From assembly GCA_963827295.1 (NCBI GenBank), contig CAWHAI010000017.1, positions 1 through 61,125 of the forward strand: a DNA stretch of 61,125 nucleotides, written 5' to 3'. Under the pieces are notes generated by a model, which was not told the DNA's origin, searched no databases, and worked only from the letters and a program-made list of their open reading frames with translations. The position numbers were made by a program, and so were the translations under genes. This stretch comes from an uncultured Chloroflexia bacterium. GTDB taxonomy: Bacteria > Chloroflexota > Dehalococcoidia > SZUA-161. Shown piece after piece: positions 3,918 to 51,852 of this stretch; the first letter of the stretch is position 1, and each line of letters begins with the position of its first letter.

Positions 3918-4087
3918 GAGGGTGAACAGCTACTTGTCGGGCTAACAGAATTGTGTAATCCACCTAGCCCCATACCGGCGAGCTCAACCTATTTACCCGG
4001 TGGTTCCTTTAGGGAAAGAAATAGTTCCCTTCTGTTGGTGCTCCGTCTTTTTGAGTTAGGCTTATTCTGTGACATGTTGTACCTCTT

Positions 4088-4184
4088 TCAACCCCCTATG
4101 TCCCCCATCTTGGGGGAATTTAAGATTTGGGGGGACACCCCCAGCCCCCCGGGTCAAAAGGGGCTCTGCCCCTCTGCACACCCC
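4088..4184 (+). repeat. triple-hairpin intergenic repeat (family A, copy 1)
   Basis: tcaaccccct..tcccccatcttggggga..ggggggacaccccc..aaaggggctctgcccctctgcacacccc: three consecutive GC hairpins. Confidence 0.8.
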
Positions 4185-11525: not shown

Positions 11526-11916
11526 TCTGTTTTCTCCTGTGACGATATCAGCCTATGGGACGTATCTGAACACAGCTTAGTATAGAATTGAGCCCAAGCT
11601 AGCCAAACCAGAAGTAACCTTATACAACCATGTCAGTAGTGAAAATTTGCCTTGCGACATTCTATTTGGTATGTACAAGAATTTCAAGCTATAGGATGAT
11701 TCACATAAAAATGTTTATGGCAGTTCCTATAGCTGAAATCTTTGTGACTTATGAAGATTATATTATATACTCCCATAGGAATCAAGGGCGGGAGATTGCT
11801 TCGTCCGCCAGAGGCGGGCTCACAATGACATGGGGGCTATTTCAGGAGGCGGCGGCGCATCATGAACAGGGCGAGGGGGAAGAAGACGGCGATAAGGCCG
11901 ATGATGATGGCAAGGC

Positions 11917-11934
11917 CAGAATGACCCACTACCC
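11917..11934 (+). repeat. island-border motif CCAGAWTGACCCACTACC
   Basis: ccagaatgacccactacc. 17/18 identical to the reverse complement of 32404-32421, and its core is shared with 30419-30432. Confidence 0.6.
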
Positions 11935-11948
11935 CCGGCAAGTTCAAC

Positions 11949-11977
11949 TTGACAAAATGCACAAAAGGTGCTATATT
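11949..11977 (+). promoter_or_regulatory. sigma70-like promoter of structured RNA copy 1
   Basis: TTGACA (11949-11954), 17-nt spacer, TATATT (11972-11977). Conserved in copy 2. Confidence 0.55.
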
Positions 11978-11983
11978 ATTAGA

Positions 11984-12105
11984 TAGCCTCGGGTGGGCAA
12001 ACCAGTAAGAATGGCCAATCCGCAGGAGGACCTGAGTAGGAGACCAAAGGGGCCGGAGATGGCGGATAGGTTAGAGAGACTGGGGAGATCACCTGAGGTT
12101 TTTTT
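11984..12105 (+). ncRNA. unassigned structured small RNA / leader, copy 1
   Basis: A 9-bp closing stem (cctcgggtg / cacctgagg, one G-U) is followed by T7. Nested helices CCAGU/ACUGG and AUCCGC/GCGGAU. About 4 differences from the reverse complement of 32516-32639. Confidence 0.55.
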
Positions 12106-12405
12106 ATGTCCAGCGTTCCTTTAATAACCCCTCTATTTTGGTAGATTCAGTGTGTCCACAATTTGACAAACTCGTGTGCGTGAAGTAATATCCCAGCAGA
12201 TGCAGGGTACCCAGTTGTTCTCCTCTCCTACTGTGTCAGAAGCTAGAGACTCGTAACCATAGTAGACATACAGCACCCCTAGCGTGCGCCTGATGGGTGG
12301 GCTGTCCTAGTCCCTGCACCAGTTTTAGTTCCAACATTACATGAGTAGGTTGCCCCTACTCAGCCAGTGAAGTCTAATTTCGTATAACATGGAGGTGGGG
12401 ATAAG

Positions 12406-12633
12406 ATGAAAGTGCTCAGCTACGATTGCATTGACCGGCATCATCTTATAGTCAGATGTCCCGAATGTGGCAAGGGGATGGCAATGGTAACTTGCAAAGA
12501 AGATTTCAATGGCATCGCGGAGGCTAATTGCAGTGAATGCAATGCACTTCTGGCTTTCTATCTCATAATGAAAGAGCGCAAAGCCTGGATGTTAGGCATG
12601 CCGATTGAGATGGTAACCAAGCAATTAACATAG
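12406..12633 (+). CDS. small zinc-ribbon protein, hypothetical
   Basis: 75 aa with CPECGK...CSECN. GGAGGTGGGG SD. Lies downstream of RNA copy 1. Confidence 0.5.
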   Translation: MKVLSYDCIDRHHLIVRCPECGKGMAMVTCKEDFNGIAEANCSECNALLAFYLIMKERKAWMLGMPIEMVTKQLT

Positions 12634-12767: not shown

Positions 12768-13020
12768 GTAGGGGCACGGTGCACCGTGCCCCTACGGGTT
12801 GGAGCGGATGCTCCAACCTACCCAGGAGAGTGATAGGCCCTTTAAGAGGCTCAGGACAGGCTCTCCCGTCAAGGGAGAGGGAAAAGGGCGATCCGATGGG
12901 TCGCCCCTACGGGTTCACCCTTCGACAGGCCCTTCGGCAAGCTCAGGACAGGCTCAGGGCGGACGGATGCTAATCCCCCTTATCCCCCTTAAAGGGGAGC
13001 CGCTACAGCCCCCGCAGCTA
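12768..13020. repeat. cluster of REP-like hairpins (family B)
   Basis: gtaggggcacggtgcaccgtgcccctac, gggttggagcggatgctccaacc, gggcgatccgatgggtcgcccc and other GC palindromes back to back. Confidence 0.7.
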
Positions 13021-15160: not shown

Positions 15161-15161
15161 A

Positions 15162-15258
15162 TCAACCCCCTGAATCCCCAAATCTTGGGGGATTATGAAA
15201 AAGTTGGGGGACACCCCCAATGCCCCTGGCAAAGGGGCTACGCCCCTCTGCACACCCC
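15162..15258 (+). repeat. triple-hairpin repeat (family A, copy 3)
   Basis: tcaaccccctgaatccccaaatcttggggga..ttgggggacacccccaa..aaaggggctacgcccctctgcacacccc. Confidence 0.8.
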
Positions 15259-15866: not shown

Positions 15867-15887
15867 GAGTGGCCTCCTTAAGCTTAA

Positions 15888-15978
15888 TCAACCCCCTAAG
15901 TCCCCCAGTCTTGGGGGATTGAAAAAATTTGGGGGACACCCCCAAGTCCCCCAGCAGGAGGTGTCCTGCACCTCTGGG
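15888..15978 (+). repeat. triple-hairpin repeat (family A, copy 4)
   Basis: tcaaccccctaagtcccccagtcttggggga..tttgggggacacccccaag..gcaggaggtgtcctgc (variant third hairpin). Confidence 0.8.
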
Positions 15979-15994
15979 AGCGCTTTTGGCTTAG

Positions 15995-16085
15995 TCAACC
16001 CCCTGAATCACCCCGTCTTGGGGGATTATAAGAAGTGGGGGATGCCCCCAAGTCCCCCGGCAGGAGGTGTCCTGCCCCTCGGCAC
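15995..16085 (+). repeat. triple-hairpin repeat (family A, copy 5)
   Basis: tcaaccccctgaatcaccccgtcttggggga..gtgggggatgcccccaag..ggcaggaggtgtcctgcc, in tandem with copy 4. Confidence 0.8.
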
Positions 16086-22522: not shown

Positions 22523-24032
22523 TATTCTTGAGTCACGGGTTCGTGATGTGACGGCATGAACCTAAAGACGACAATAGCCCCTACGACGAAGATAGCGCAC
22601 GGAAATGATTGCCATCGTTTGCCAGCCATCCATGAAGCTCTGTTTGGCCGTTTGAGCCAAGGAATTCGCCACTGCCTGAGGCAGTTGCCCCGAGTTTGCA
22701 ATACCGATGGCTACACCTACTGAGTCGCTGGCTTTCTTGGCTAACGCCGCCGGTAGATCAGGGAATAGCCGCTGCCGATTTGACAAAATTAGAGGCATAG
22801 ATGCTGGTGAGAACGGCACCCAGAGCCGCTACGCCGATGGTGCCGGACACCATCCTGAAGACGGTGTTCATAGCGGAGCCGATGCCGGCTTTAGCTTTCG
22901 GTAGGGCCCCCATAATTGCATTCGTGACCGGAGCTATAATGTTGCCCAAGAAGAAAGCAGAAAAGAATAGTTCAGTACCTAATTGCCAGAACGGTGAATC
23001 TATGGTAAATCTCGATATTAAGATAAATAAAATTGCAGTGCCAACGAAACCGATCGCCATGACCCACTTTGTCCCCAGACGTTTTACTGCATTATCGGCC
23101 ATAACAGCTCCCAACAAAATCCCCAGGGCTAGCGGCAAATAGCGCAATCCGGTTCCCAGTGCGTTATAACCTTTGACAAACTGCATGTAGTAGGTCAAGA
23201 CATACTGGAACCCATTCAAGCCCAAGCCCAGAATGACGAGAACTGCGATACCAGCAGAAAAACGGGCTTTCCGGAAAAAACCGATCTCCAACAACGGCTG
23301 AGATGACATTCTCTCCCACAACACAAACAGGGCGATAAGCAGCACAGAGCCAAGCAGTGTTGCGAGCACCTGAGCGTCTGTCCATCCCCGGGAACCGCCG
23401 TTAATCAGTCCATATATCAGCGCTGACAGGCCTGCCAGTGATAATATATTGCCGACAATATCCAGCTTACGCGGGTTGCTATCCCGGCTATCCGGTATCA
23501 GAAACCATCCTAATATCAAGGCTATTACAGCTACGGGGATATTAATCAGAAAAATCGAGTTCCAGTTGAAGTTCTGTACCAGCGCGCCGCCGATAATGGG
23601 CCCCAGAGTATGCGTGATGGCATAAGGCCCGCCCACACCCCGATTGCCCTGCCCCTTTCTTCTCGGGGAATATGTTGGTAAATAGGAGGGGGCGGCAGGC
23701 AGTATCATGGCCGCGCCGGCGCCCATGAAAAACCGCCAGATTATCAGGTGAGTTGCGGTGCCGGAGAGATATGCTCCTATACTTGATAGACCAAAAACAG
23801 CGATACCGGCCTGTAAAAGTCAGACCCGGCCCAGACGGTTGCCGCGCAGAGCGCCTGTAGTCAGCATCAGAGCGCCAAATATCATCGTATAACCATTCAC
23901 CATCCACAGGAGTTCAGAGTTGGTGGCATTCAACTCTCTCTGGATGGTGGGTAAAGCTACGTTCATAACCGTGGCATCCAGTACTATGACCAGTACACTC
24001 AATGATAACAACAAGCGTCCACATCTCTGCAT
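22523..24032 (-). CDS. MFS efflux transporter, DHA2 (EmrB/QacA)-like (at least 3 frame breaks)
   Basis: LDATVMNVALPTIQ..LLWMVNGY (the DHA2 N-terminal hallmark), then many TM helices across fragments 23820-24032, 22758-23726 and 22523-22819. Confidence 0.75.
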
Positions 24033-24803: not shown

Positions 24804-24991
24804 GGCGACCCGACGGGTCGCCCCCTACGGATATTATCGGGGCATGAGCTGGTAATAAGGGGCAAGAGCTTTGAATGTAGGAAGGGGCACGGCATGCCGT
24901 GCCCCTACTTTGTTTCCAAGAATATTGGTCTGGTGATGACAGGACTACGAGACCTGTTCGTATGGGTAGGGGCGTTCAATTGAGCGGCCTA
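24803..24991 (+). repeat. composite REP unit (family B) plus an extra hairpin
   Basis: ggcgacccgacgggtcgcc..tacggatattat..aggggcacggcatgccgtgcccctac, then gtaggggcgttcaattgagcggcctac. Confidence 0.7.
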
Positions 24992-25394: not shown

Positions 25395-27556
25395 TCAGAC
25401 GCCGAACTCCTCAAGTAGCTGACTTGCCTGTTCGTCCATGAGTCCGAATTTACTCACGGTTTCACGCTTTGGTATAGCTTGGGATGTGAAACCTTTCTCT
25501 TCATAGACAATGTCGCAGAGCTTCTGATAGGCTTGCATTCTTTTTTCGAGGAGAAGTTTATGGCGCTCTTCAAGACTTGCAGGGATACTGCCATCGCCGA
25601 GCTGTTTCTGTAGCCATTCATCATAATATTCGGCTCGAGATTCGTATTCATTGATGTAGGCGGGCCCCATTGCTCTGAGGGGGATCTGGTCGCTGGCCCG
25701 AGTCCCTTTTCCCTGACGCAGATTGATCAGTTTCTGCAGGATGTACAGCCTTTCTGAATCATCCAGAATGTCCTGCAAATTTTTGCTGCTGCCTGTGGTC
25801 GCATTGAGGTACTTGACATAGTAGGCCAGTGTGGGGAGATTCTTCGCGGGCTCACTAGTGTTGGCGGCCTCCGGATTGCGCACGTCGATCCAGGGGAGCT
25901 TGCAGAGACCGGTAGCGTTGAACCAGGTGCGGATCAAGGGGAACCACTTAAGCGCGTTCGCCTTTTGTTCAAAGGTGGGCAGTTCCTTGTGAACCTGGTC
26001 TATGAAGATGAGCCATGCCTCGTCATGCTGCGGCCCCTTGAGAGCGAAGCCGTACCCGCCCTGCTGGGCGAGCGACTCTTTGCTGATGTACATGGAGAAC
26101 TCGAGCCCTTTCACTTCCATGCCGAATTTGTTCAGCTCAGCCATGGCAGCGTGTTCAGAGGTGCCGTGCCGGGCAGCATACTTCTGGGCAACCCATTTCT
26201 TGCCCCTGGCCACACCCTGGCCTGCAACCTTGCCGAAACCTTCTCCGCTGGCTATTTCGTGCAACAGCCTGTCTGCAGCCTCTATGTTGCCGAATGTCAA
26301 CTCATAGCCTATGTCATCAGCAGTCAGAAATCCGCGCTGGAAGCACTCCATGAAGAACGCGATGGTCACGCCTGTGGAAATGGTATCGAGGCCGTATTCA
26401 TCGCAGTACCAGTTGTATTCCATGACGAAATGGGGGTCGAAGATGCCCATGCAGCCGACTGCGCCAACGGTTTCGTACTCAGGCCCGTCAATGCTGACCT
26501 TCTGCCCTGCCCTGGGGCCCCGCGTCAGTTCGACATTTTCGGCACCCTTGGCGCAGGCGAGATTGCATCCGTAGTAGCAGCCATCGGGCATCTTCTTGCT
26601 GAAGTACCTGTCAAGAAAGACGCTGCGCAAAGAGCTTCGGAGACTCAGGGCTCTGCCCGTACTGGTAGTTGTTGATGGGGAAGAGGTGGAATTTGTCCAT
26701 ATACTCGGACAGAACCGTGGTTCCCCAGGCGGACAGGTGAAGCTGTTGAGGGTCGGCTTTTAAGACGACCTCTTTGAGCTGGGAGCCTGCCTGGCGCACG
26801 CCTTCCCGGTCTACGGCATTGTTCCCATTTGCCTTGGGCAGGCTGGAGCGTGCCACAATGGCGCGGAGTCCCTTGAATCGCATGACAGTTCCCGTACCGC
26901 CCCTGCCAGCCTGCTTGGAGCGGATGCGGTCGCGCTTTCTGTCATAAAAGAGGCTGTTGACAATCCCGAACCTGGCGTGGCGCGCGCCTTCCCCCACGGT
27001 TACGGCGGCAACGGAGTCGCTATACTCTCCGCCGTTGACATCTCTTCAGCAGTCTTTCGCCAAAGGAGAGGGAGCCATCATCTATTTCCTTGCCGTAAGA
27101 AGGCGCAGCGGCGATGCTGATGGTTCCGGCATCGCCATCAACCAGAATGACCACATCTTTTGTGGATATCCCGGAAACAGCCAGTGCATCAAAGCCTGCG
27201 AGCTTCAGCAGCGGCGCGAAATGGCCGCCGACATTGGAATCGATAAACGTGTCGGTCAGGGGCGAAATAGTGCCGACGATGAATTTGCCGGTTCCCGGGA
27301 ATCCCGGCTCATTGCCCAGCGGCCCGCTGGCCATTACCAGGATATTATCAGGGCTGTCATAGCGGGTCTCCCGTGTGGTGCCGTCCCAGATCAGTTTCAG
27401 GGCATATCCCCGGCCGCCGATGTATTTGTTCTTGAAATCGGGCGGAAGTTCTTGAATCGCGATTTCCTGCTTGCCCAGATCAACCCTGAGTATCCGGTCT
27501 GTGTATCCACCCACAACTTTGGCGGGTTCATATTTGATTTGCCGTAATATTTGCAT
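25395..27556 (-). CDS. tungsten-type aldehyde:ferredoxin oxidoreductase (AOR family) (2 frame breaks)
   Basis: N-terminus GGYTDRILRVDL..IGGRGYALKL..SGPL. Middle RSKQAGRGGTG. The C-terminal 411 aa carry GCNLAC, the AOR domain 2/3 hallmark. Breaks near 27010 and 26625. Confidence 0.85.
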
Positions 27557-27702
27557 ACCGACTTCCGTTACTTTCTATTTGATCAGCGTTGTGAACGACA
27601 ATGGTTATTATAACCTTTTAGGCGGCTCGTAATCAAAGCTCATTCAAATTCTCTGAGGTTGAATAGAAAGTGGCACAAAGCGGAGAATTGTCCAGAGGTG
27701 GG

Positions 27703-27727
27703 GAGGGGTTCAATTGAACGTCCCCTA
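27703..27727. repeat. REP-like hairpin (family B)
   Basis: ggggaggggttcaattgaacgtcccct. Confidence 0.5.
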
Positions 27728-27730
27728 AGA

Positions 27731-27795
27731 CTACATTTCCCCATAGAGTTGCAGGGTTTTGTAGATAGCGTTAGCCCCGAAGTCCAAGCCTCCGC
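27731..27795 (-). pseudogene. remnant of the 3' end of an M20-peptidase paralog
   Basis: The minus strand reads ..LDFGANAIYKTLQLYGEM*. This nucleotide stretch is clearly homologous to the true M20 3' end at 32814-32875 (..LAFGANAIYKALQRYHA*). Confidence 0.5.
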
Positions 27796-27841: not shown

Positions 27842-30250
27842 TCAGTGTCCAGTTCGGGCAATGATTTCATCCTGAATCTCTTTCATCAGGTCATTGAAGT
27901 AGGCGGAATAGCCAGCCACTCTCACCATGAGCCCCGGGTGTTTCTCCGGATTCCGCTGGGCGTCAAGGAGCGTTTCCTTATCAACAACATTGACCTGGAG
28001 ATGCATGCCGCCCAGTTCAAAGTATGTTCTGACCAGTGAACTCAGTATATGCGCTCCTTTAGCGCCTGTAAGGTTCTGCGGGTTGAACTTGATATTTACC
28101 GATACGCCGTTGGTTGCCAGTGAATGGTTTATCTTGGCCACAGACTTGAGATAGGCGGTCGGCCCTTTCTTGTCCCATCCATCGCATGGCGAGAGCCCAT
28201 TGGCAAAGGTCTCGAGCGCTCTTCTGCCGCTGGGAAGCGCTCCCACGAAATTGCCGAAGCCTTTATGGGTGGTCATGGTCAGAAAGCCCGGCAGGTATGC
28301 GCCTCCGCGCGAGTTACGATGCCTGGCTACCTCATTACAGAAGATTTCAGCGACTGTTTTCGCGTACTTATCGGGGAGTTCATCGTCATTACCATATTTG
28401 GGTAGCTTCATAATCAGGCCATGCAGGCTTTCATTGCCGGCGAAGTTATCCTTCAGTGCCTGCACAAACTCCAGCAGGGTAACCTTTTTCTCCCCGAAGA
28501 CGAGCTGGTCTATGGCAGCCAGTGAATCGGCGACATCGGCTACCCCCACCCCCTGCACGCCAGTGAAGTTGTATACAGCCCCACCTGCAGTGACGTCCTT
28601 TCCCGAATTCAGACAACCTTCGATAACGGAAGATAGCAACGGGCTGGGATACAACTGCTCGTGGGCAATGGTCAGTGCGTTGAGCCCGATTACCATTTGC
28701 TCGACAAGGTAAGCCACCTGCTTTCGGAAGGCATTGATGATATCTTTCATTCCCTTGAAGCTTTTAGGGTCTCCGGTGTGGATTCCAACCTGGTCCTGGA
28801 AGACCGTGCAGTATCCATCGTTGAGAGCCATCTCCAGGCAAATGGGCAGGTTCATCAGAGCGGCGTCAGTAGAACCGAAGGTCTTGCGGGGAATCGATAT
28901 CTCGACGCAGCCGATTACCGTGTAGTCGCGAGCGTCCTTCTCTTTAATCCCTTTCTCGATGAGGGCCGGGATGATTACTTCATCGTTCACCACTGCCGGC
29001 ATCCCGCCGCCACCTCTGATGAGTTCGGCAACCCTATTCACATACTCAGGAGGCGAGTTCTGGTGAATTCTGGCGTGGAGGTTAGGATGTCTGGTCTTTA
29101 TCAGTTCTCTGGTGTCCAGGATGCGAAGGCTTAACGGGTTAGTAGCATCCAGACCATCGCCTGTCAATCCGCCGATGGTAATCGATGGGTTGGCGGGGAA
29201 ACCGGCGAAGAAGAGGGCGATACTGTCACAGAAGAGGGGGACAAACTCGGAGGTCTTGATGAAAAAGCAGCCCAGCAGCTCTATGGCTCGCTGCTCTGTA
29301 AGAACTCCTCTCTCCGTATCATGCTGGTAGTAGGGATAGAGATACTGGTCCAGTCTGCCGAAGCACAGGGCTTGCTCATAGTTCTCCTGATGGAGAGCAA
29401 TCTCCATGAACCACAGGCTCTGAAGCGCTTCGCGAAAGGATTGGGCTGGCCCGGCCGGGACCTTTTCACAGATTCGCGCGATCTCTTCTAATTCAGATTT
29501 TCTCACGGGGTCTTTTTCGGTGCCAGCCAGTCTAAGTGCTTCCTGGCTGTATCTCTGGGCAAATTCAATTACAGCCTCACAGACTATTTCCACAGCTTTG
29601 TAGAAGGCACGTTTTTTCAGCGCTTCGGGGTGTTTCGCCGGAGCGCTGTCGATAGTCGTGATTTTCTCTCTTGCCTCCTCAATCAATCCTCTCAAGCCTA
29701 CCTTCAACAACTTCTCGTAGTCCGGCGCTGTATGGGAGATGCCGCCGGCTTCAGTCAAAAGGAAAACACCGAACCTCCCCAGGAGGGATATCGGCGTAGG
29801 CGGAGAGGTGAAGTCCTCCGCGTAGTCGGTCACGACCTTGTCCTGCCAGTAGGGAAAAATCACCTTGTCCAGTTCGTTTTTCTCCGCATCGCTGATCTTG
29901 AGAGAATTCTCTCCCTTTTCCGTAAGCGTGTTGAGCTCGGGCCAGATCAGCAGGCTGATGAATTCAGGATAGACTATGGCCCCTACCCGTTTACTGGTGA
30001 TGCCTCCGACTATCAATTCATCCGGGTATATCTTCACATCCAAATTCTTCAGGACATGAGCTACAGCCTTCGCTCGCCTGATGACCGGCGGCTCAAACCA
30101 GGCCCCTTCGCTTTTCATGTACTCGGTGATATAGTGTGCCCGCTGGACACAAATCTCTTTCTGGGCACTCATGAGGTTGTTGTAGAGCCGTGAAATCCTG
30201 GGGAAAGAGTCTAGCTTTAGCTCAAGAGTTGGTGCGTCCTGCCTGACCAT
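27842..30250 (-). CDS. glycyl radical enzyme (PFL2 / 1,2-eliminase type)
   Basis: C-terminal glycyl-radical motif MVRVAGYSAYF and active-site VIGCVEIS (Cys-x-Glu). About 802 aa. GGAGGAGG SD before the ATG at 30250. Confidence 0.9.
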   Translation of the reverse strand: MVRQDAPTLELKLDSFPRISRLYNNLMSAQKEICVQRAHYITEYMKSEGAWFEPPVIRRAKAVAHVLKNLDVKIYPDELIVGGITSKRVGAIVYPEFISLLIWPELNTLTEKGENSLKISDAEKNELDKVIFPYWQDKVVTDYAEDFTSPPTPISLLGRFGVFLLTEAGGISHTAPDYEKLLKVGLRGLIEEAREKITTIDSAPAKHPEALKKRAFYKAVEIVCEAVIEFAQRYSQEALRLAGTEKDPVRKSELEEIARICEKVPAGPAQSFREALQSLWFMEIALHQENYEQALCFGRLDQYLYPYYQHDTERGVLTEQRAIELLGCFFIKTSEFVPLFCDSIALFFAGFPANPSITIGGLTGDGLDATNPLSLRILDTRELIKTRHPNLHARIHQNSPPEYVNRVAELIRGGGGMPAVVNDEVIIPALIEKGIKEKDARDYTVIGCVEISIPRKTFGSTDAALMNLPICLEMALNDGYCTVFQDQVGIHTGDPKSFKGMKDIINAFRKQVAYLVEQMVIGLNALTIAHEQLYPSPLLSSVIEGCLNSGKDVTAGGAVYNFTGVQGVGVADVADSLAAIDQLVFGEKKVTLLEFVQALKDNFAGNESLHGLIMKLPKYGNDDELPDKYAKTVAEIFCNEVARHRNSRGGAYLPGFLTMTTHKGFGNFVGALPSGRRALETFANGLSPCDGWDKKGPTAYLKSVAKINHSLATNGVSVNIKFNPQNLTGAKGAHILSSLVRTYFELGGMHLQVNVVDKETLLDAQRNPEKHPGLMVRVAGYSAYFNDLMKEIQDEIIARTGH

Positions 30251-30418
30251 GTCAACCTCCTCCACCTTTGCCTTGTTAAAAGGTTATTGCGGTTATTAGT
30301 GCAGATTTGAACGTGTTACTTCGGTTATCATCCAGGACTTCGGATCCACTGCTGGCAGCAATCCTAATAAAGCTAATTTATCATTATTGACTGATATTGT
30401 CCAGTGAGCTCGCGAAAG

Positions 30419-30438
30419 GGTAGTGGGTCAATTTGAAA
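30419..30438 (+). repeat. left direct repeat bounding the SIR2 cassette
   Basis: ggtagtgggtcaatttgaaa versus 32404-32423 ggtagtgggtcaatctggaa (18/20 identical). Confidence 0.65.
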
Positions 30439-30504
30439 AGGAGAAAAAATGAGTAGATGGCTGCGTTTCTGAACAGAACCGAGTTGCGTTTAAGGGATAA
30501 TTAT

Positions 30505-30545
30505 CGGACAAAACAAGAGAGGCCTGCCGAATGCTAGGCCTCTCT
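30505..30545 (-). terminator. intrinsic terminator of the SIR2-like gene
   Basis: 9-bp stem gagaggcct/aggcctctc with a 10-nt loop, followed on the minus strand by TTGTTTTGT. Confidence 0.6.
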
Positions 30546-30688
30546 CCACTTCTGGATATCTAGAGTATGTACCTACCGATGCGGCCCCCCCATAATTTTC
30601 ACCTCCTACATCCACTTAATTCTCTTTTTACCATATTCATATCCATTTGTCAATGGTCACATGACTAAGGTACTGCGGGATGTAATCG

Positions 30689-32326
30689 TTAATCGTTATC
30701 ATCTTCAGCAGGCGGTCTCCACTTGTCAAGTAGTGTCTGTAAATCAGGGTCATCCCAATAATCCTCAAACACTACAAACATCTCAACCTGACCGGGTGTC
30801 AGAAGCTTGCTCTCCAGCGCATCGCGTAGTGCTGTTAACATGACTTTCTTCTGCTTGCGCAGAGCCGCGATTCCAGCGCGAATATCATCTTCACATTTCC
30901 CAGCTTCTATATTACGAAGTTCCTTGCCCAGTTCTTTCTTTTTCCCGAGGCGTTTCAAGGCGATTGCCCGATTTATTCTGACCAATTGATCCGTCGGGTT
31001 TATGACGAGCGCCTCATCTGCCTTTCTTACAACGCCATCATTATCATCGGCATGGAGAAGATAGTAAGTAATATTCGCAGCATCGTCAGCATCGAACCAA
31101 TTCTGATCGACCAAAGACTTGAGTTCAGTCTTTCGGCCTAGCTTGGCAAGTACTTCAACTATTTCGTACTTAACTGAGCTGTCATTCGGATCGTCTTGAT
31201 GTGCCTTCGTTAGATAGGCTAAGGCACCTTCCAAGTCACGCTTATGCCTAGCCACAACCGCTCTAATTGATGGCGGGAAATCATCTTCCGCTATCCTAAA
31301 CACCACATGGTCACCGGGTTCTTCAGGTTCTAATATGCTGCCACTAATACCTTCAAGTACCCGATTAATGTCTCGGGCAATAATGGGGTTGTTCTTAATT
31401 TCAGGGGGTATATCCAAAAAAAGACGAGTTCTGTCACGTGCTGCGCTAATAGGATGTGCAATTACCTTTGGGAGATCTAGCCCTGTCTTGTCATGAATGT
31501 ATGCCATAAATTCATCAAAGCCGTCAATCTCTGCACAATAAACTCTGCTCTTTCGTAAGAAAGCACCTAGTCGTTTGCAGGGCAGTTCTCCCTTGCGTAC
31601 GCACCAATATACGCCGTGGCCGAAAAACTCATCGCTCCTTATTAACACATCGAGGATATCCATCACTGACCGATCCCTGCCACCATATCCTACAATGATT
31701 AGGCCATATTCTTGAGCGAACTGCATGAACTTCTTCCTCATATTGTCTTCTAGTCTTGCCAGTTCGCTAACGGTATTCTTGATGTTGTCGAAAAGAAAAT
31801 CTCCATGAAGTTTGATTATCTTAGGCCTAGCTGGCGCGACGCGAATCCCGGTTACAGCGGAATCATGAGCGCAAACAATTGGTCGGAGACCGTCTGAGTA
31901 TAGGAAGCACGCTTCGTTAAGGAGATCATCAAAGTTCGTTGTAAATACAACATTGAAAATGTTCTCTTTAAGAAGATTAGCTAAGTAGACATATCCCCAA
32001 CTCGGATGAGCGTTCTTCAGACGTTCTTCGATATAGGCGCGTCGCTGGGCTGGCTGGTCGTACAGACTCTCAAATAAGATTGCATATTCATCATCTGAGC
32101 CATACGACTCCTGTTTCTTTATCCAATTTGCGAATGTTTGGCCTGACCCACTACGCCTGTATAGTTCGCTTCGCCACACTTCGATCATCTCGGTCGCCGT
32201 CTTTACCCCAGAAGTGGCCGAGGCTCCTGACCCTAGGAGAAGGGCAAAGTTTGAAATTCCTGCATTCCTTGTCAAGACTAAGTTTGTTAGATGCTCCGTA
32301 GACCTAGATTCGCCACTCGAAGCCAT
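30689..32326 (-). CDS. SIR2-like (SIR2_2) NADase domain protein with C-terminal TPR-like helical repeats
   Basis: 545 aa. LLLGSGASATSG, FTTNFDDLLNEA, KIIKLHGDF and IIVGYGGRDRSVMD motifs. The C-terminal ~200 aa are helical repeats (ALAYLTKAHQDDPND.., AIALKRLGKKKE). AT-rich. Confidence 0.8.
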   Translation of the reverse strand: MASSGESRSTEHLTNLVLTRNAGISNFALLLGSGASATSGVKTATEMIEVWRSELYRRSGSGQTFANWIKKQESYGSDDEYAILFESLYDQPAQRRAYIEERLKNAHPSWGYVYLANLLKENIFNVVFTTNFDDLLNEACFLYSDGLRPIVCAHDSAVTGIRVAPARPKIIKLHGDFLFDNIKNTVSELARLEDNMRKKFMQFAQEYGLIIVGYGGRDRSVMDILDVLIRSDEFFGHGVYWCVRKGELPCKRLGAFLRKSRVYCAEIDGFDEFMAYIHDKTGLDLPKVIAHPISAARDRTRLFLDIPPEIKNNPIIARDINRVLEGISGSILEPEEPGDHVVFRIAEDDFPPSIRAVVARHKRDLEGALAYLTKAHQDDPNDSSVKYEIVEVLAKLGRKTELKSLVDQNWFDADDAANITYYLLHADDNDGVVRKADEALVINPTDQLVRINRAIALKRLGKKKELGKELRNIEAGKCEDDIRAGIAALRKQKKVMLTALRDALESKLLTPGQVEMFVVFEDYWDDPDLQTLLDKWRPPAEDDND

Positions 32327-32403
32327 TGATTCCTCCCCTTGGCAACGTATAGCGGTGCGATATTATCACACGACCATGATTTTGTCTACATCTAAGAATG
32401 GAC

Positions 32404-32423
32404 GGTAGTGGGTCAATCTGGAA
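32404..32423 (+). repeat. right direct repeat bounding the SIR2 cassette
   Basis: ggtagtgggtcaatctggaa. Its reverse complement ttccagattgacccactacc matches 11917-11934. Confidence 0.65.
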
Positions 32424-32515
32424 TGAGCACACGATTTAAGAAAAATGTAACATAAGGGAAGATAAGGTAGCATCGTGCATAATAATGTTATGTGAAGCAA
32501 AGGGACGCCGGACAT

Positions 32516-32639
32516 AAAAAAACCTCAGGTGACCTCCCCAGTCTCTCTAACCTATCCGCCATCTCCGGACCCTTTGGTCTCCTACTCAGGGTCCTCCTGC
32601 GGATTGACCATTCTTACTGGTTTGCCCACCCGAGGCTGT
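32516..32639 (-). ncRNA. unassigned structured small RNA / leader, copy 2
   Basis: The reverse complement is colinear with 11984-12105. It has the closing stem cctcgggtg/cacctgagg plus U7 and a perfect inner stem GGACCC/GGGUCC. About 190 nt upstream of the SIR2 start. Confidence 0.55.
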
Positions 32640-32644
32640 TTATA

Positions 32645-32673
32645 AATATAGCACCTTTTCTGCATTTTGTCAA
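32645..32673 (-). promoter_or_regulatory. sigma70-like promoter of structured RNA copy 2
   Basis: Minus strand: TTGACA (32668-32673), 17-nt spacer, TATATT (32645-32650). Confidence 0.55.
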
Positions 32674-32719
32674 GTTGAACTTGCCATTTTGTTAATTGAA
32701 GTTTCTATTCTTTCCCAAA

Positions 32720-32740
32720 ATGATACACTACCCGCGAAAG
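32720..32740 (-). repeat. degenerate inverted copy of the border motif
   Basis: The reverse complement gctttcgcgggtagtgtatca resembles 30409-30430 gctcgcgaaagggtagtgggtca. Confidence 0.4.
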
Positions 32741-32780
32741 CACAATGGGAGTTAACAAGAAAGTCCTGTGAAGTGTCAAG

Positions 32781-32813
32781 GGGTGGGCAGGGGTGTCGAA
32801 TCGAAGCCCCTAC
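32781..32813. repeat. REP-like hairpin (family B) abutting the M20 stop
   Basis: ggtgggcaggggtgtcgaatcgaagcccctacc. Confidence 0.5.
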
Positions 32814-34099
32814 CTATGCGTGATAGCGTTGCAGGGCTTTGTAAATGGCGTTAGCCCCGAAGGCCAGTGCCTCTATGGGGATGCGTTCGTCGGCGGCGTG
32901 CGTATGCTTCAGCAGGTCTAAATCGGGCGGCAGATTCATGGGCGTGAAGCCATAGGTCTGAATGCCCAGCATGGAGAAGAAGCGCCCATCTGTAACTCCG
33001 GGCATGAACATAGGAACGGGCATAGCGCCCGGGTCTGCCTCACGTAGAATGCCTGCCAGGGTGTCGAAAAATCCCATGTCCGGCTCAGCGGGGCCAGGGT
33101 CATGCCGTGCTAATTCGAACTTTACCTCATTACCAACTATACGACGCAGCTCAGCTATCATGTTGTCTGGGCTGTAGCCGGGGAGGAGGCGCCCGTCCAA
33201 TTCCAGCGCGATTTCGCTGGGGATAACGTTGATTTTGTCCCCGCCGCGGACGATGGTTGCGTTTACCGTGTTATGAAACAACGGCCCCAGGCCTTGCCCT
33301 CTGGTACCAAGGAGTCTCAGTATCAAGTCAGTCAGCCTGGGATTGAGAAGTTGACGCAGGATCAGGTTCTGGGGAAATGAGAGTGCAGAGGCCATGCCCT
33401 CAATCATCTGGCGTGCTGCCGGGGTGATATGCACGGGCAAATGCCGCCGGTCCAATTGCTGTAGCACTCGGGCCAGTTTCGCCATAGCGCCGCCGCGCAG
33501 GGGGAACGCCCCATGGCCGCCGGGCCCGCGCACATGCGCTTGCATCCAGCAAATCTGCTTTTCAGCGACCATGATGAGGTAGAGCTTTTTGCGGCCGAAG
33601 TAGAACCTGGAGCCACCGAACTCTCCGAGGGCATAGCGAATGCCTTTGAACAGCTCGGGGTGGTTCTCTACCAGGTACCTGGCACCGTAATCGCCGGCTC
33701 CCTCCTCGTCCGACAAGATGGCCAGACACAACGTCGCCGGCATGGAGTCAAGCCTTCGGCCTTTGCCCTGAGGAAAGCAGCCAGCATCATGGCGACGCCG
33801 CCCTTCATATCCAGAGCGCCCCGGCCCCAGATGTAGCCATCCACGATTACCCCTTCGAATGGCGGATGTGTCCAGGCCTGTCCAAGGGTTGTGACCACAT
33901 CAACATGTCCATAGAGCAAGAGAGGCGGTGCAATGCCCTGCCCTTTCAGTCGTGCGATAAGGTTGGGGCGGTTGGGGACTTTCGCCAGGAGGGTGGTCTC
34001 AAAGCCCGCCTCAGTCAGCAGGCTGTTGACATAAGCTACACACTCAGCTTCGTTGCCGGGCGGATTGGTGGTGTCGAAGCGGATGAGGTTTTGCAGCAA
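32814..34099 (-). CDS. M20-family metallopeptidase (ArgE/DapE/CPG2-like) (1 frame break near 33745)
   Basis: LIRFDTTNPPGNE, LLLYGHVDVV, WGRGALDMKGG and ..SDEEGAG... The true start may lie upstream (up to about 34155). Confidence 0.8.
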
Positions 34100-39464: not shown

Positions 39465-39607
39465 TGATTTCAGAATGGTGCACTACCTATGGATTGGATT
39501 GTTTGCAACATAGTGATATATAGTTATGCGCACCTACTATTTTGCGCCGATTGAGAAAAGCAGATATAATACCCGCACATTCTTTCGTAGAGACCAGGAG
39601 GTTAAAG

Positions 39608-40118: not shown

Positions 40119-41778
40119 TCACATATGCTCCGGCGCGGTCATGCCCATGAGGAGCAGGGTCTTGGCCAGGACTATTTGCGCTGCCTTGACTAGCTTGAGC
40201 CGGGCGCAGGTCAACTCACTATCCTCCGAGACAACTCGGCACTGCTTGTAGAAGGTGTGGAAAGAGGTCGCCAGGTCTTGGGCGAAGTAGGGCAGGTGGT
40301 GGGGCTCGAGTTTTTGGGCAGCAAGCTCGATTATCTCGGGGAGCAACACCATCTTGCGTATCAGGTCGAGCTCAGCCTCATGGGTAAGTAATCTCACATC
40401 GCCTCTAGAGTAGTCTATGTTCTTCTCCTGGGCCAGGCGCATGATGCTGGCGATGCGGGCGTGGGCATACTGGACGTAATAAACCGGGTTGTCTGCTGAC
40501 TCTTTCTTGGCTAGCTCCAGGTCGAAATCCATCTGGCTGTCCGCGGAGCGTGAGAGGAAGAAGAAACGGCAGGCATCTGCACCCACCTCCTCTACAAGCT
40601 CGCGAAGTGTGATGAGTTCCCCAGTGCGCTTGGAAACCCTGATCAAATTCTCTCCGCGACGCAAGGTGACCATCTGGGAGATTATTATCTTCAGTCTCTC
40701 GGGCTCAATCCCCAGCGCCCCGACCACTGCCTTCATCCGCGAGACATGCCCCTGGTGGTCGGCTCCCCAGATGTCGATCACTTTGTCGAACTTACGCTCG
40801 AGGAACTTGTTATAGTGGTAAGCAACGTCCGAGGCGAAGTAGGTAGGGGAGCCGTTGGTGCGCACCAGTACGTTGTCTTTGTCCTCGCCGAGGGCGGTGG
40901 AGACGAACCATTGGGCCCCTTCCCTCTCTTGGATATGGCCGCCCTTTTTCAGCATAGCCATTGCCTTTTCATACTGGCCCTTCTCGAAGAGGGTGCGCTC
41001 GCTGAACCAGACATCGAAGTCAACGCCCAGGAGCTTGAGGTCAGCCTTGATGTCCGCTATAACCTTGGGCAACGCGAACTTGCCTATCTCCTGAACTGCT
41101 TTCTCGGCAGGCATGGAGAGGAAGGAGTCCCTCTTCTCGGCGACTATCTTCTGGGCGAGCTCTACCGGGATAGAAGCCCTGATAGCCATCGGTGGGCATC
41201 TCGCACTCCTTGCCCAGTGCTTGAAGGTAGCGGCAATAGAGGGAGCGATAGAAGGCGTCCATCTGGTTACCGGCGTCATTTACATAATATTCTCTCTCCA
41301 CTGCGTAGCCGGCGGCTTTGAGCACACTGGCCAGGGTGCTGCCCAGGACAGCGCCTCGCCCGTGCCCGACATGGATGGGCCCTGTGGGGTTGACGCTGAC
41401 GAATTCAATCTGGGCCTTAGCGCCTTTACCCAGAGCGAGGTTGCCGTAATTCTCGCCCTTGCTCAGTATCTCCTTGACCTGCTCGGTGAGCCAGGTATCT
41501 GTGAGGGTGAAGTTGATGAAGCCAGGCGCTGCCACCGAGACCTTCTTTATCTCTTTAGTCTCAGTCAGGAGTTTTGCCAGGGTATTTGCTATAGTCATTG
41601 GATTCATCCGCGCTGCCTTGGCCATTTTTAAAGGGAGGCTTGAGGCGTAGTCCCCGTGCTCGGGATTCTGGGGGTGCTCTACGATGACCTCAGGTAAGGC
41701 GATGGCAGGAAGCTGGCCCTCAACCTGGGCTTTCTGGGCTGCTTGTTCCAAAAGTCGGGCGATTTCATATTTAAGCAT
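40119..41778 (-). CDS. argS: arginine--tRNA ligase (1 frame break near 41180)
   Basis: N-terminus ..[20 protein letters not shown]-terminal fragment ..[30 protein letters not shown]. Confidence 0.9.
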
Positions 41779-50752: not shown

Positions 50753-50760
50753 TGTTTCTA

Positions 50761-50855
50761 TCAACCCCCTAAATCCCCCAGTCTTGGGGGATTTGGAAAA
50801 CTTGGGGGACACCCCCAGTCCCCCGACAGAGGGGCTTAGCCCCTCTGCACTCCCC
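50761..50855 (+). repeat. triple-hairpin repeat (family A, copy 6)
   Basis: tcaaccccctaaatcccccagtcttggggga..cttgggggacacccccag..cagaggggcttagcccctctgcactcccc. Lies between the argB stop and the argD start. Confidence 0.85.
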
Positions 50856-51701: not shown

Positions 51702-51767
51702 CTAATCATAACACAAAATTGAATACCAATGTTATCACAGATACTCAAGTGCGTCTAGTCTCCATTA

Positions 51768-51852
51768 TCAACCCTTTTGCCACCCCAAGCTGGGGGGAAT
51801 TTAATATTTGGGGGACACACCCAAGCCCCCGGCAGGAGGAATTCTGCATCTC
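51768..51852 (+). repeat. triple-hairpin repeat (family A, copy 7, diverged)
   Basis: tcaacccttttgccaccccaagctgggggg..tttgggggacacacccaag..ggcaggaggaattctgc. Upstream of argB. Confidence 0.65.

Follow-up and report, generated by a model that had tools for sequence, protein, structure and literature searches.

What kind of unit is the AT-rich segment that separates a glycyl-radical enzyme gene from an M20 peptidase gene in an uncultured Chloroflexia bacterium, and what might its one large gene do? The segment lies in a stretch of 61,125 nucleotides (GenBank assembly GCA_963827295.1, contig CAWHAI010000017.1, positions 1 to 61,125), referred to here as the window. Its gene encodes a 545-residue protein with an N-terminal SIR2 domain and a C-terminal array resembling tetratricopeptide repeats (TPRs), which we call SIR2-TPR. 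We conclude with high confidence that 30419-32732 is a non-autonomous derivative of an IS1-like transposon with passenger genes, that is, a mobile insertion cassette (MIC), the term in use for transposase-less insertion sequence (IS) derivatives that carry passengers (PMC3129680). A compound cassette whose passenger would work as sensor and effector on a single chain is the best explanation of the locus overall and, in our judgement, a probable one.

Ends of the element and its transposon family

The initial annotation had described a segment richer in AT than both flanks, bracketed by an 18/20-nt direct repeat, with a degenerate inverted copy further out, and had taken it for a horizontally inserted unit. 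The composition is as described, with a G+C fraction of 0.43-0.47 over 30250-32750 and of 0.52-0.60 in the flanks on either side. The direct repeat is also real, but its copies are not two boundaries: the right-hand one is internal, and the supposed degenerate copy, which exists, is the element's actual second end. The left repeat and this inverted copy thus delimit a true extent of 2,314 bp, opening with GGTAGTG at 30419 and closing with CACTACC at 32732 in inverted orientation, and a perfect 8-bp target-site duplication, CGCGAAAG, lies directly outside both ends (Table 1). Ends of the form GGnnnTG and duplications of 8-9 bp are hallmarks of the IS1 family, and the ~20-nt sequence GGTAGTGKRTCAWTYTGR, of which the repeats here are copies, is the terminal inverted repeat (TIR) of a family of IS1-like transposons. 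The inner pair of copies, at 32404 and 32732, has no target-site duplication and delimits a 329-bp sub-unit (32404-32732) resembling a miniature inverted-repeat transposable element (MITE). Five copies of the TIR motif are present in the window where 0.77 are expected, and none of 100 shuffles reached five; the two copies outside the element are a solo end listed in Table 1 and one at 39468-39487. No IS1-type transposase is encoded within the 61-kb window and none inside the element, and it is because TIRs are present and the transposase absent that we class it as a non-autonomous MIC. A search for tRNAs, bearing on tRNA-targeted integration, found none.

The same cassette occurs elsewhere. 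A 90%-identical relative of the protein (P0002) is encoded on 13 short metagenome contigs, with a major facilitator superfamily (MFS) transporter gene upstream and, on one contig, an IS256-type transposase gene downstream. Its DNA is homologous to the window from 32428 to 30415 (92.7% over 2,014 nt) and is bounded by the same TIR motif in this other context, and the motif therefore travels with the cassette. Together with the TIRs and the perfect duplication, this bears out horizontal insertion. The proposal that an empty site in relatives would carry one copy of GGTAGTGGGTCAAT was a wrong prediction, because the repeats are the ends of a transposon and not an insertion signature. An empty site would hold one CGCGAAAG and no motif, and the expected sequence between the glycyl-radical enzyme and M20 peptidase genes is ...GAGCT CGCGAAAG CACAATGGG....

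A scan with GGGTAGTGKRTCAWTYTGR, taking one genome per species, found the TIR at no fewer than 119 loci, concentrated in metagenome-assembled genomes (MAGs) of Dehalococcoidia/Chloroflexota and Terriglobia/Acidobacteriota (L001-L156 label the compared loci on MAG, metagenome and virus contigs). The motif typically stands in inverted pairs, which enclose 89-118 nt in Terriglobia, a MITE pattern, and 0.3-3 kb in Chloroflexota. Among the matches listed, 13 of 26 inverted pairs have a perfect 8-bp direct duplication, each of different sequence, the window element being one of the 13; the same motif terminates 24 further inverted pairs on other contigs, 12 of them with a perfect 8-bp duplication. 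A scan of viral contigs gave nine single matches, near chance, one of which (L025) is a complete 846-bp element with its duplication. Elements of ~3 kb share a protein of 275-342 residues, in which Pfam DDE_Tnp_IS1 scores above its cutoff in three of five copies and the NCBIfam IS1-family model is the top match in all five (1e-12 to 2e-16; 48-60 bits, below the equivalog cutoff of 100). Judged by these profiles, the transposase of the autonomous relatives is a distant IS1-like lineage.

Other elements of the family also carry passengers, of defence or toxin-antitoxin type: a full-length RosmerTA pair in L030 (4512-7552; RmrA 7e-133, RmrT 9e-56), a type II DNA methyltransferase and a 376-residue protein in L048 (1140-3500), a HicB-family protein with an adjoining small open reading frame (ORF) in L105 (2027-2903) and a GNAT acetyltransferase in L055 (725-3779). 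An ORF pair in L133 (658-3688) matches the RosmerTA pair of L030 on a comparison of size and layout only. Beside one TIR of every autonomous element lies a gene for a small basic protein of 73-88 residues with a motif like (R/K)GG(K/R)ARA...L(T/S)PE(E/Q)R...EIA; the one copy scanned, that of L030, has no Pfam match, and the protein may be an accessory or regulatory transposon gene product.

The SIR2-TPR protein and its predicted role

The motifs first read in the 545-residue ORF, LLLGSGAS, TTNFDD, KLHGDF and VGYGGRD, are all present. Pfam places SIR2_2 (PF13289) on the N-terminal half at 1e-13 (52 bits, cutoff 24.5), the assignment that the initial annotation had put forward for checking, while classical SIR2 (PF02146) is absent from the Pfam matches at E <= 1 and the NCBIfam models of canonical sirtuin deacylases reach 17 bits against a cutoff of 243. 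Across 45 homologs of 45-90% identity, G32, G34, S36, T129-T130-N131-F132-D133 and H174-G175-D176 are invariant; among them are the glycine loop predicted to bind NAD and the predicted catalytic Asn/Asp and His. In PADLOC the top match is a SIR2 profile of short prokaryotic Argonautes (pAgos), Aga_SIR2-PNTD1-PNTD2, at 1.6e-65, in which residues 25-314 align with profile positions 6-313 of 558; next comes PDC-S65 (4e-32), on the SIR2 part only. A profile built from the family aligns residues 27-289 with the Sir2 chains of SPARSA (8JKZ, 8IN8) at 5.7e-36, bringing TTNFDD and K(L/I)HGDF into register, and Foldseek searches with the predicted structure rank SPARSA first (ranks 1-3, 27-28% identity), then DSR2, then ThsA (rank 12). 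In sequence profile and modelled fold the SIR2 half is closest to that of the short-Argonaute (SPARSA) proteins.

The C-terminal ~200 residues, which had been read as helical repeats, form helical hairpins in the AlphaFold model (mean predicted local distance difference test score 84.8, about 88-97 over most of residues 360-530; predicted template-modelling score 0.64). Helices of 10-14 residues are paired over 352-505, the linker that separates them from the SIR2 domain is only ~50 residues long, and the array amounts to five or six TPR-like hairpins within 350-540. Pfam TPR_19 matches at 8.9e-5 (23.2 bits, below its cutoff of 25), with the remaining Pfam TPR models weaker; with the family profile, designed consensus TPR proteins reach 7e-6 to 1e-4, and close homologs have precomputed TPR_14, TPR_16 or TPR_19 matches. 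Pairs of family members share on average 65% identity over the SIR2 domain, 35% over the linker and 42% over the C-terminal domain. The initial annotation could name no system of this architecture, and PADLOC, NCBIfam, Pfam and the searchable literature offer no named system that covers the whole protein; literature queries on SIR2-TPR, PDC-S65, ISMhu11 and promoter-directed IS targeting returned nothing relevant. In architecture, the protein is most aptly called a new variant among immune-type SIR2 effectors.

Relatives are numerous. At least 1,450 emerged from the first homolog search, and the best 120 of these are all full-length (510-590 residues, 44-90% identity) and almost all without a name; the window protein itself has no exact record in the assemblies index. 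The gene is solitary, as first described, with no conserved partner across seven unrelated contexts. Two homologs lie amid transposases (L010, L155) and one lies near a DUF87/HerA-like gene and MazE (L011). In L156 (ENA ERZ25069412, a 2.3-Mb contig) the homolog stands between McrBC and a cluster of type I restriction-modification (R-M), KAP nucleoside triphosphatase (NTPase) and HicB genes, beside an integrase-AlpA-VapE module; this locus is a compact defence island, with the KAP NTPase and HicB-like genes embedded in the type I R-M system. Viral elements carry relatives too. Haloferax virus Halfgib1, a pleolipovirus provirus (L146), encodes a 555-residue SIR2 and TPR protein with 30% identity over residues 26-375, and Vibrio phage 10N.286.55.B4_PE002, a PM2-like prophage (L145), a 624-residue protein with a 50%-identical SIR2 domain and a different C-terminus. 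The Vibrio protein is tagged pAgo__SIR2APAZ by its depositors, with no Argonaute gene annotated in the stretch examined. Both viral proteins are stand-alone, and each adjoins the integrase gene of its element. The SIR2 half also matches two PHROG families, at 2e-111 and 6e-89.

Immune-type SIR2 proteins (the SIRim clade, which includes pAgo SIR2) are reported to be 12-fold enriched near defence systems (preprint 10.1101/2024.09.18.613514). The protein is fairly probably a defence NADase that acts by abortive infection, the catalytic activity and the anti-phage role both being predicted from homology and context. The best-supported mechanism, modelled on DSR2 and on the oligomerisation of SPARSA and ThsA, is a single-chain sensor-effector. 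In this mechanism the TPR array would bind a phage- or stress-derived protein, much as the C-terminal repeat domain of DSR2 is bound by a phage tail-tube protein (PMC11850899, PMC11290490); binding might relieve autoinhibition or drive oligomerisation, and the SIR2 domain would then hydrolyse and deplete NAD+, aborting infection. The protein could instead be a regulatory NAD-dependent deacylase or ADP-ribosyltransferase acting on a host protein recruited by the TPRs. Some homologs are indeed named 'NAD-dependent SIR2 family protein deacetylase', several lie among housekeeping genes, and a moderately conserved C-terminal domain would suit such a role. We nevertheless consider this unlikely, given the missing PF02146 match and negligible deacylase scores, the grouping of the domain with the SPARSA, DSR2 and ThsA NADases by both sequence and fold, and a patchy, mobile distribution over a transposon, proviruses and a defence island.

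Transcription units, apparent promoter docking and probable history of the cassette

The SIR2-TPR gene has signals of its own, as had been noted from the letters alone. A promoter-like site, kept in two other lineages of the cassette (L001 and L007), has its -35 hexamer 15 nt beyond the internal TIR end, and the gene is followed by an intrinsic terminator with a G+C-rich stem of 10-11 bp, also kept in L001 and L007, in a region that folds at -25 kcal/mol (ViennaRNA); a consensus terminator scanner missed the hairpin because its loop is 10 nt long. Between the stop codon and the terminator (30560-30640, minus strand), a stretch containing TTGACA is found together with the strong Shine-Dalgarno sequence GGAGGTGA and an ORF of six codons (MGGPHR). 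These three features are common to the three cassette lineages (window, L001, L007), whose divergence is too low to gauge selection. A 47-residue ORF downstream of the gene in relatives was rejected as a gene because other lineages have it frameshifted or interrupted. In the gene's reading direction, the element runs from TIR-R through a 187-nt RNA-like unit, the internal TIR, a 15-nt spacer and the SIR2-TPR promoter, gene and terminator to TIR-L.

The RNA-like unit (copy B) has a near-consensus extended -10 promoter and a rod-like predicted transcript, and is 95% identical to copy A, at 11937-12122 on the plus strand. Three of seven metagenome matches shared only the 20-mer and were discarded; the four remaining homologs (L147, L149, L150, L151; 84-86% identity) retain both promoter and outer helix. 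Because homology in L149 and L151 runs from copy A into a conserved 75-residue cysteine-rich ORF (window 12406-12633), the native locus is that of copy A, of which copy B is a captured duplicate. Rfam offers no family for the unit, either for the whole window at gathering thresholds or for 32350-32800 at E <= 10, and RNAalifold on six homologs predicts 36 pairs with no compensatory change and several broken, so that the fold is unsupported. The closest SIR2 cassettes lack the unit, and the SIR2-TPR gene therefore probably does not need it. This bears on the possibility that SIR2-TPR is a toxin that stabilises the cassette as an addiction module, with the RNA-like unit as antitoxin or repressor. 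The position of the unit directly upstream, on the same strand and in the same element, with a strong promoter, would fit, as would the toxin-antitoxin-type cargo of sister elements. It is very unlikely all the same, since the two closest cassette relatives are without the unit, which has an independent native locus upstream of the 75-residue ORF and a fold that covariation does not support.

Three TIR copies in the window share one register, in which 15 nt separate the TIR from a -35-like hexamer and a further 17 nt separate this from a -10-like hexamer, and the genes downstream are SIR2-TPR, the glycyl-radical enzyme and copy A of the RNA-like unit. We gathered about 158 non-redundant TIR ends by TIR sequence alone from among the matches listed, to which the following counts refer. 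A match of at least five of six letters to TTGACA stands at offset 15 in 29 of the 158 ends, where the other 59 offsets have a mean of 0.9 and a maximum of 3; 24 of these 29 also satisfy a 9/12 promoter rule, and the -10-like hexamer usually follows 16-18 nt beyond. At offsets 15-20 the letter counts by column spell out T-T-G-A-C-A, at 39-48% per position, and offsets 8-14 are uninformative. In complete elements with a perfect duplication (n=13), a hexamer matching at least four of six letters stands on exactly one side in seven; the other six have no such hexamer on either side, and no element has it on both. The 15 nt between TIR and -35 include the duplicated target, and the promoter is therefore part of the target and not of the element. 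TIR-free metagenomic homologs of the RNA-unit locus lose homology to the window and to each other 11-15 nt upstream of the -35, a break consistent with a recurrent insertion hotspot. No description of fixed-distance promoter targeting by an IS was found in the searchable literature, a search that cannot prove novelty.

The transposase may recognise TTGACA, or promoter-bound RNA polymerase. Docking at this distance would offer a safe harbour, since promoters are left intact, and paired insertions could package entire promoter-gene-terminator units as mobile cassettes. On this docking property rest both the complete promoter-gene-terminator unit held by the cassette and the position of the present insertion, 15 nt upstream of its neighbour's -35. 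The family might then serve as a dedicated shuttle for one- and two-gene immune modules, such as SIR2-TPR, RosmerTA, R-M and HicAB-like pairs. The full proposal, that the family docks 15 nt upstream of sigma70-type -35 hexamers as an immune-module shuttle and that SIR2-TPR, with its origin in an Argonaute-type SIR2, is a new defence protein that stands alone and depletes NAD+, is one that we put forward tentatively.

The common register has another possible source: the motif could be a transcription-factor site centred near -61, marking co-regulated promoters (SIR2-TPR, the glycyl-radical enzyme and the small RNA), and the identical spacing of the three window copies and of 29 of the 158 ends is what such a site would give. 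Inverted pairs that enclose 89 nt to 3 kb, with duplications and a transposase, speak against it, however, as do the unconserved 15 nt in which the duplicated target lies; no promoter adjoins either the 3'-terminal motif of the L001 cassette or the copy at 32713, and the register is better explained by the transposon's choice of landing site. As an account of the motif, regulation is thus highly improbable, although the two readings are compatible in that a TIR could be co-opted. That the repeats are sites of a site-specific recombinase (integron attC-like or dif/pdif-like), with the gene excising as a circular cassette, would cover the recurrence of the cassette between the same motif and the solo copies in the window, yet it is close to untenable: 8-bp duplications of unrelated sequence at 13 inverted-pair elements are the mark of DDE transposition and not of conservative recombination, the autonomous relatives have a gene for an IS1-like DDE transposase but for neither a tyrosine nor a serine recombinase, and no recombinase or integron integrase gene is present in the cassette flanks. 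Integron-like or dif-like cassette sites, a repetitive extragenic palindromic (REP) element with its REP-associated tyrosine transposase (RAYT) and a simple operator were all rejected as identities of the repeats.

Taking the repeats as TIRs, the cassette is probably compound, joining the 329-bp MITE-like unit with the transcription unit of SIR2-TPR and, at 30419, a second right end. The 85% relative L007 has two inverted TIR copies upstream of the gene, 16 nt apart, forming an empty 56-nt unit, which is followed by the same arrangement of TIR, 15 nt, -35, 17 nt and -10 as in the window. In the order of events that we favour, an ancestral SIR2-TPR gene would first have received a MITE-like unit 15 nt upstream of its promoter, and in the lineage of the window this unit would have gained a copy of the RNA-like unit. 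A distal right end could then have been used, mobilising the whole promoter-gene-terminator unit. A transposase supplied in trans would finally have inserted the cassette through an 8-bp staggered cut, duplicating CGCGAAAG, at the family's preferred docking site, 15 nt upstream of the -35 of the glycyl-radical enzyme gene.

Several points weigh against the overall interpretation. Concerning the element, the empty site was not recovered, the 22-nt reconstructed exact junction giving no match in JGI metagenomes, and the nearest homolog of the flanking glycyl-radical enzyme (90%) lies in a non-syntenic locus (L154). The cognate transposase was not seen in host sequence, of which only 61 kb of the genome is covered, and L001-type relatives show two ends of the same (right) orientation, with no left end within 2.6 kb at up to six mismatches. 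Concerning the protein, the neighbourhood in the window is metabolic and housekeeping, with no defence island, and the homologs in L012 and L014 lie among housekeeping genes. The C-terminal domain is fairly conserved (42%) and not hypervariable as some phage sensors are, and we found no biochemical or phage data for any member of the SIR2-TPR family.

Table 1. Positions of the features discussed (window coordinates, unless a locus label is given)
Feature	Position	Strand	Details
SIR2-TPR gene, 545 aa	30689-32326	-	SIR2 (SIRim-type) NADase-like domain, residues ~25-300; variable linker, 301-349; TPR-like domain, 350-540
SIR2-TPR promoter-like site	32360-32388	-	-35 TAGACA (32388-32383); 17-nt spacer with TG; -10 TAATAT (32365-32360)
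SIR2-TPR intrinsic terminator	30507-30545	-	Stem AGAGAGGCCT/AGGCCTCTCT (30516-30545), 10-nt loop, then UUGUUUUGU
Target-site duplication, left copy	30411-30418		CGCGAAAG; identical 8-mer abuts both element ends
TIR-L	30419-30438	+	GGTAGTGGGTCAATTTGAAA; left direct repeat of the initial annotation; relatives' homology stops at 30415
Internal extra TIR copy	32404-32423	+	Right direct repeat of the initial annotation; inner pair without duplication
TIR-R	32713-32732	-	Minus-strand reading GGTAGTGTATCATTTTGGGA; 'degenerate inverted copy' of the initial annotation; inverted pair with 30419
Target-site duplication, right copy	32733-32740		CGCGAAAG
RNA-like unit copy B, 187 nt	32499-32685	-	Promoter TTGACA-17-TGcTATATT (32673-32645); roughly 125-nt transcript; U7 tract
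Glycyl-radical enzyme promoter-like site	30375-30403	-	TGGACA-17-TAAATT; -35 exactly 15 nt from TIR-L; docking site, outside the element
Solo TIR end, same family	11914-11933	+	Precedes by 15 nt the -35 of RNA-like unit copy A (native; 11937-12122)
Small basic ORF in sister elements	L030 4577-4798; L133 724-948; L111 4034-4276; L055 3484-3714; L066 2411-2677		Adjoins one TIR
65-nt repeat family	4086-4150; 15161-15225; 15887-16058; 50760-50824; 51766-51830		

Other features of the window and comparison with known systems

A direct repeat of ~100 nt (27685-27786 and 32770-32866) brackets the glycyl-radical enzyme gene together with the cassette. Its components are a REP-like GGGGTGGGCAGGGGT motif and a duplicate of the M20 peptidase gene's 3' end (89% over 44 nt), and with the cassette removed the two copies of the repeat would flank the glycyl-radical enzyme gene alone; this gene, too, may have been moved here as a segment. 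A number of genes are broken up into two or three ORFs that overlap or adjoin (25395-27556, 32814-34099, 40119-41778, 22758-23907). Pfam confirms the splits in an aldehyde:ferredoxin oxidoreductase (three ORFs) and in the M20 peptidase (two ORFs), and the ORF layout is similar in the arginyl-tRNA synthetase and MFS transporter regions; these are either frameshift pseudogenes or indel errors of the assembly. The window also holds six copies of a dispersed 65-nt repeat, ATCAACCCCCT...CTTGGGGGA...GGGGGACACCCCCA, and REP-like palindromes of the form GTAGGGGCnnnGCCCCTAC at 12768-12795, 24883-24908 and elsewhere.

Among known SIR2 systems, SPARSA (Geobacter sulfurreducens Sir2, 8JKZ and 8IN8) has the closest SIR2 domain by profile and by fold, and NAD+ depletion is the presumed shared chemistry. 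It differs in its APAZ region, which is missing here, the profile match stopping at 313 of 558 and the C-terminal half being TPR-like, and in its adjacent short Argonaute (MID-PIWI) gene, in place of which the flanks carry the glycyl-radical enzyme and the M20 peptidase. With neither APAZ nor an Argonaute partner, the sensor cannot be guide-directed nucleic-acid recognition. SIR2-TPR might still be an orphaned or trans-acting SPARSA component that needs an Argonaute encoded elsewhere, which its best profile and structural matches, to SIR2-APAZ proteins, and the depositors' tag on the prophage relative would favour. This is hardly tenable, as the match covers no APAZ, the TPR-like half is conserved across the family, and no Piwi-domain gene is adjacent to any of seven homologs or present in the window flanks examined.

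DSR2 and DSR1 offer the best analogy for the probable working of the protein, each uniting an N-terminal SIR2 NADase and a C-terminal helical-repeat sensor in one polypeptide. They are nevertheless roughly 1,000-1,200 residues long, against 545 here, and DSR2 has a MID and alpha-solenoid where SIR2-TPR has a short TPR array; the PADLOC Dsr2 match is 0.0022 over 50 residues and NCBIfam NF041819 gives 14.2 bits against a cutoff of 1400. The likeness to Thoeris ThsA is structural and runs through the SIR2 domain only, with no SLOG or TIR-domain (Toll/interleukin-1 receptor) match in Pfam and no ThsB partner. Avs5 (AVAST type 5: SIR2, STAND NTPase, TPR-like sensor) shares the SIR2 effector and helical-repeat sensor but sets a STAND/NOD NTPase between them, whereas SIR2-TPR matches no P-loop or NTPase family (Pfam, E <= 1). 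SIR2-TPR thus falls outside SPARSA for its lack of APAZ and pAgo, outside DSR2 by its length and model score, outside Thoeris for its lack of SLOG and ThsB and outside Avs5 for its lack of the STAND NTPase. PDC-S65 and PHROG 23427 and 14359 have the same N-terminal SIR2 sub-type (4e-32, 2e-111 and 6e-89), but they match residues 7-323 only, and their profiles of 592-864 positions have other C-terminal regions. SIR2-TPR accordingly stands out as a compact (~530 residues), widespread family whose effector would be an Argonaute-type SIR2 detached from Argonaute, and it gives a simple system for studying how TPRs gate a SIR2 NADase and for seeking a new phage trigger.

The element resembles the transporter ISs, MITEs and MICs of the IS1 family in its GGnnnTG ends, its 8-bp duplication and the distantly IS1-like DDE transposase of its autonomous relatives. 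It also shares with IS1-family transporter ISs and MICs the placing of passenger genes inside the ends, its transposase-less derivative presumably being mobilised in trans. An immune-type gene carried in this way would exemplify a route of spread that surveys of defence islands and IS annotation often miss. Unlike known IS1-family ISs, the present family has a distant transposase, below the NCBIfam cutoff, and its hosts are Dehalococcoidia/Chloroflexota and Terriglobia MAGs. It also differs in its preference for a fixed distance, 15 nt upstream of -35 hexamers. If this association reflects target choice, it would provide a mechanism for the capture of complete transcription units and a bacterial counterpart of the promoter-proximal or RNA polymerase III-directed integration of eukaryotic elements.

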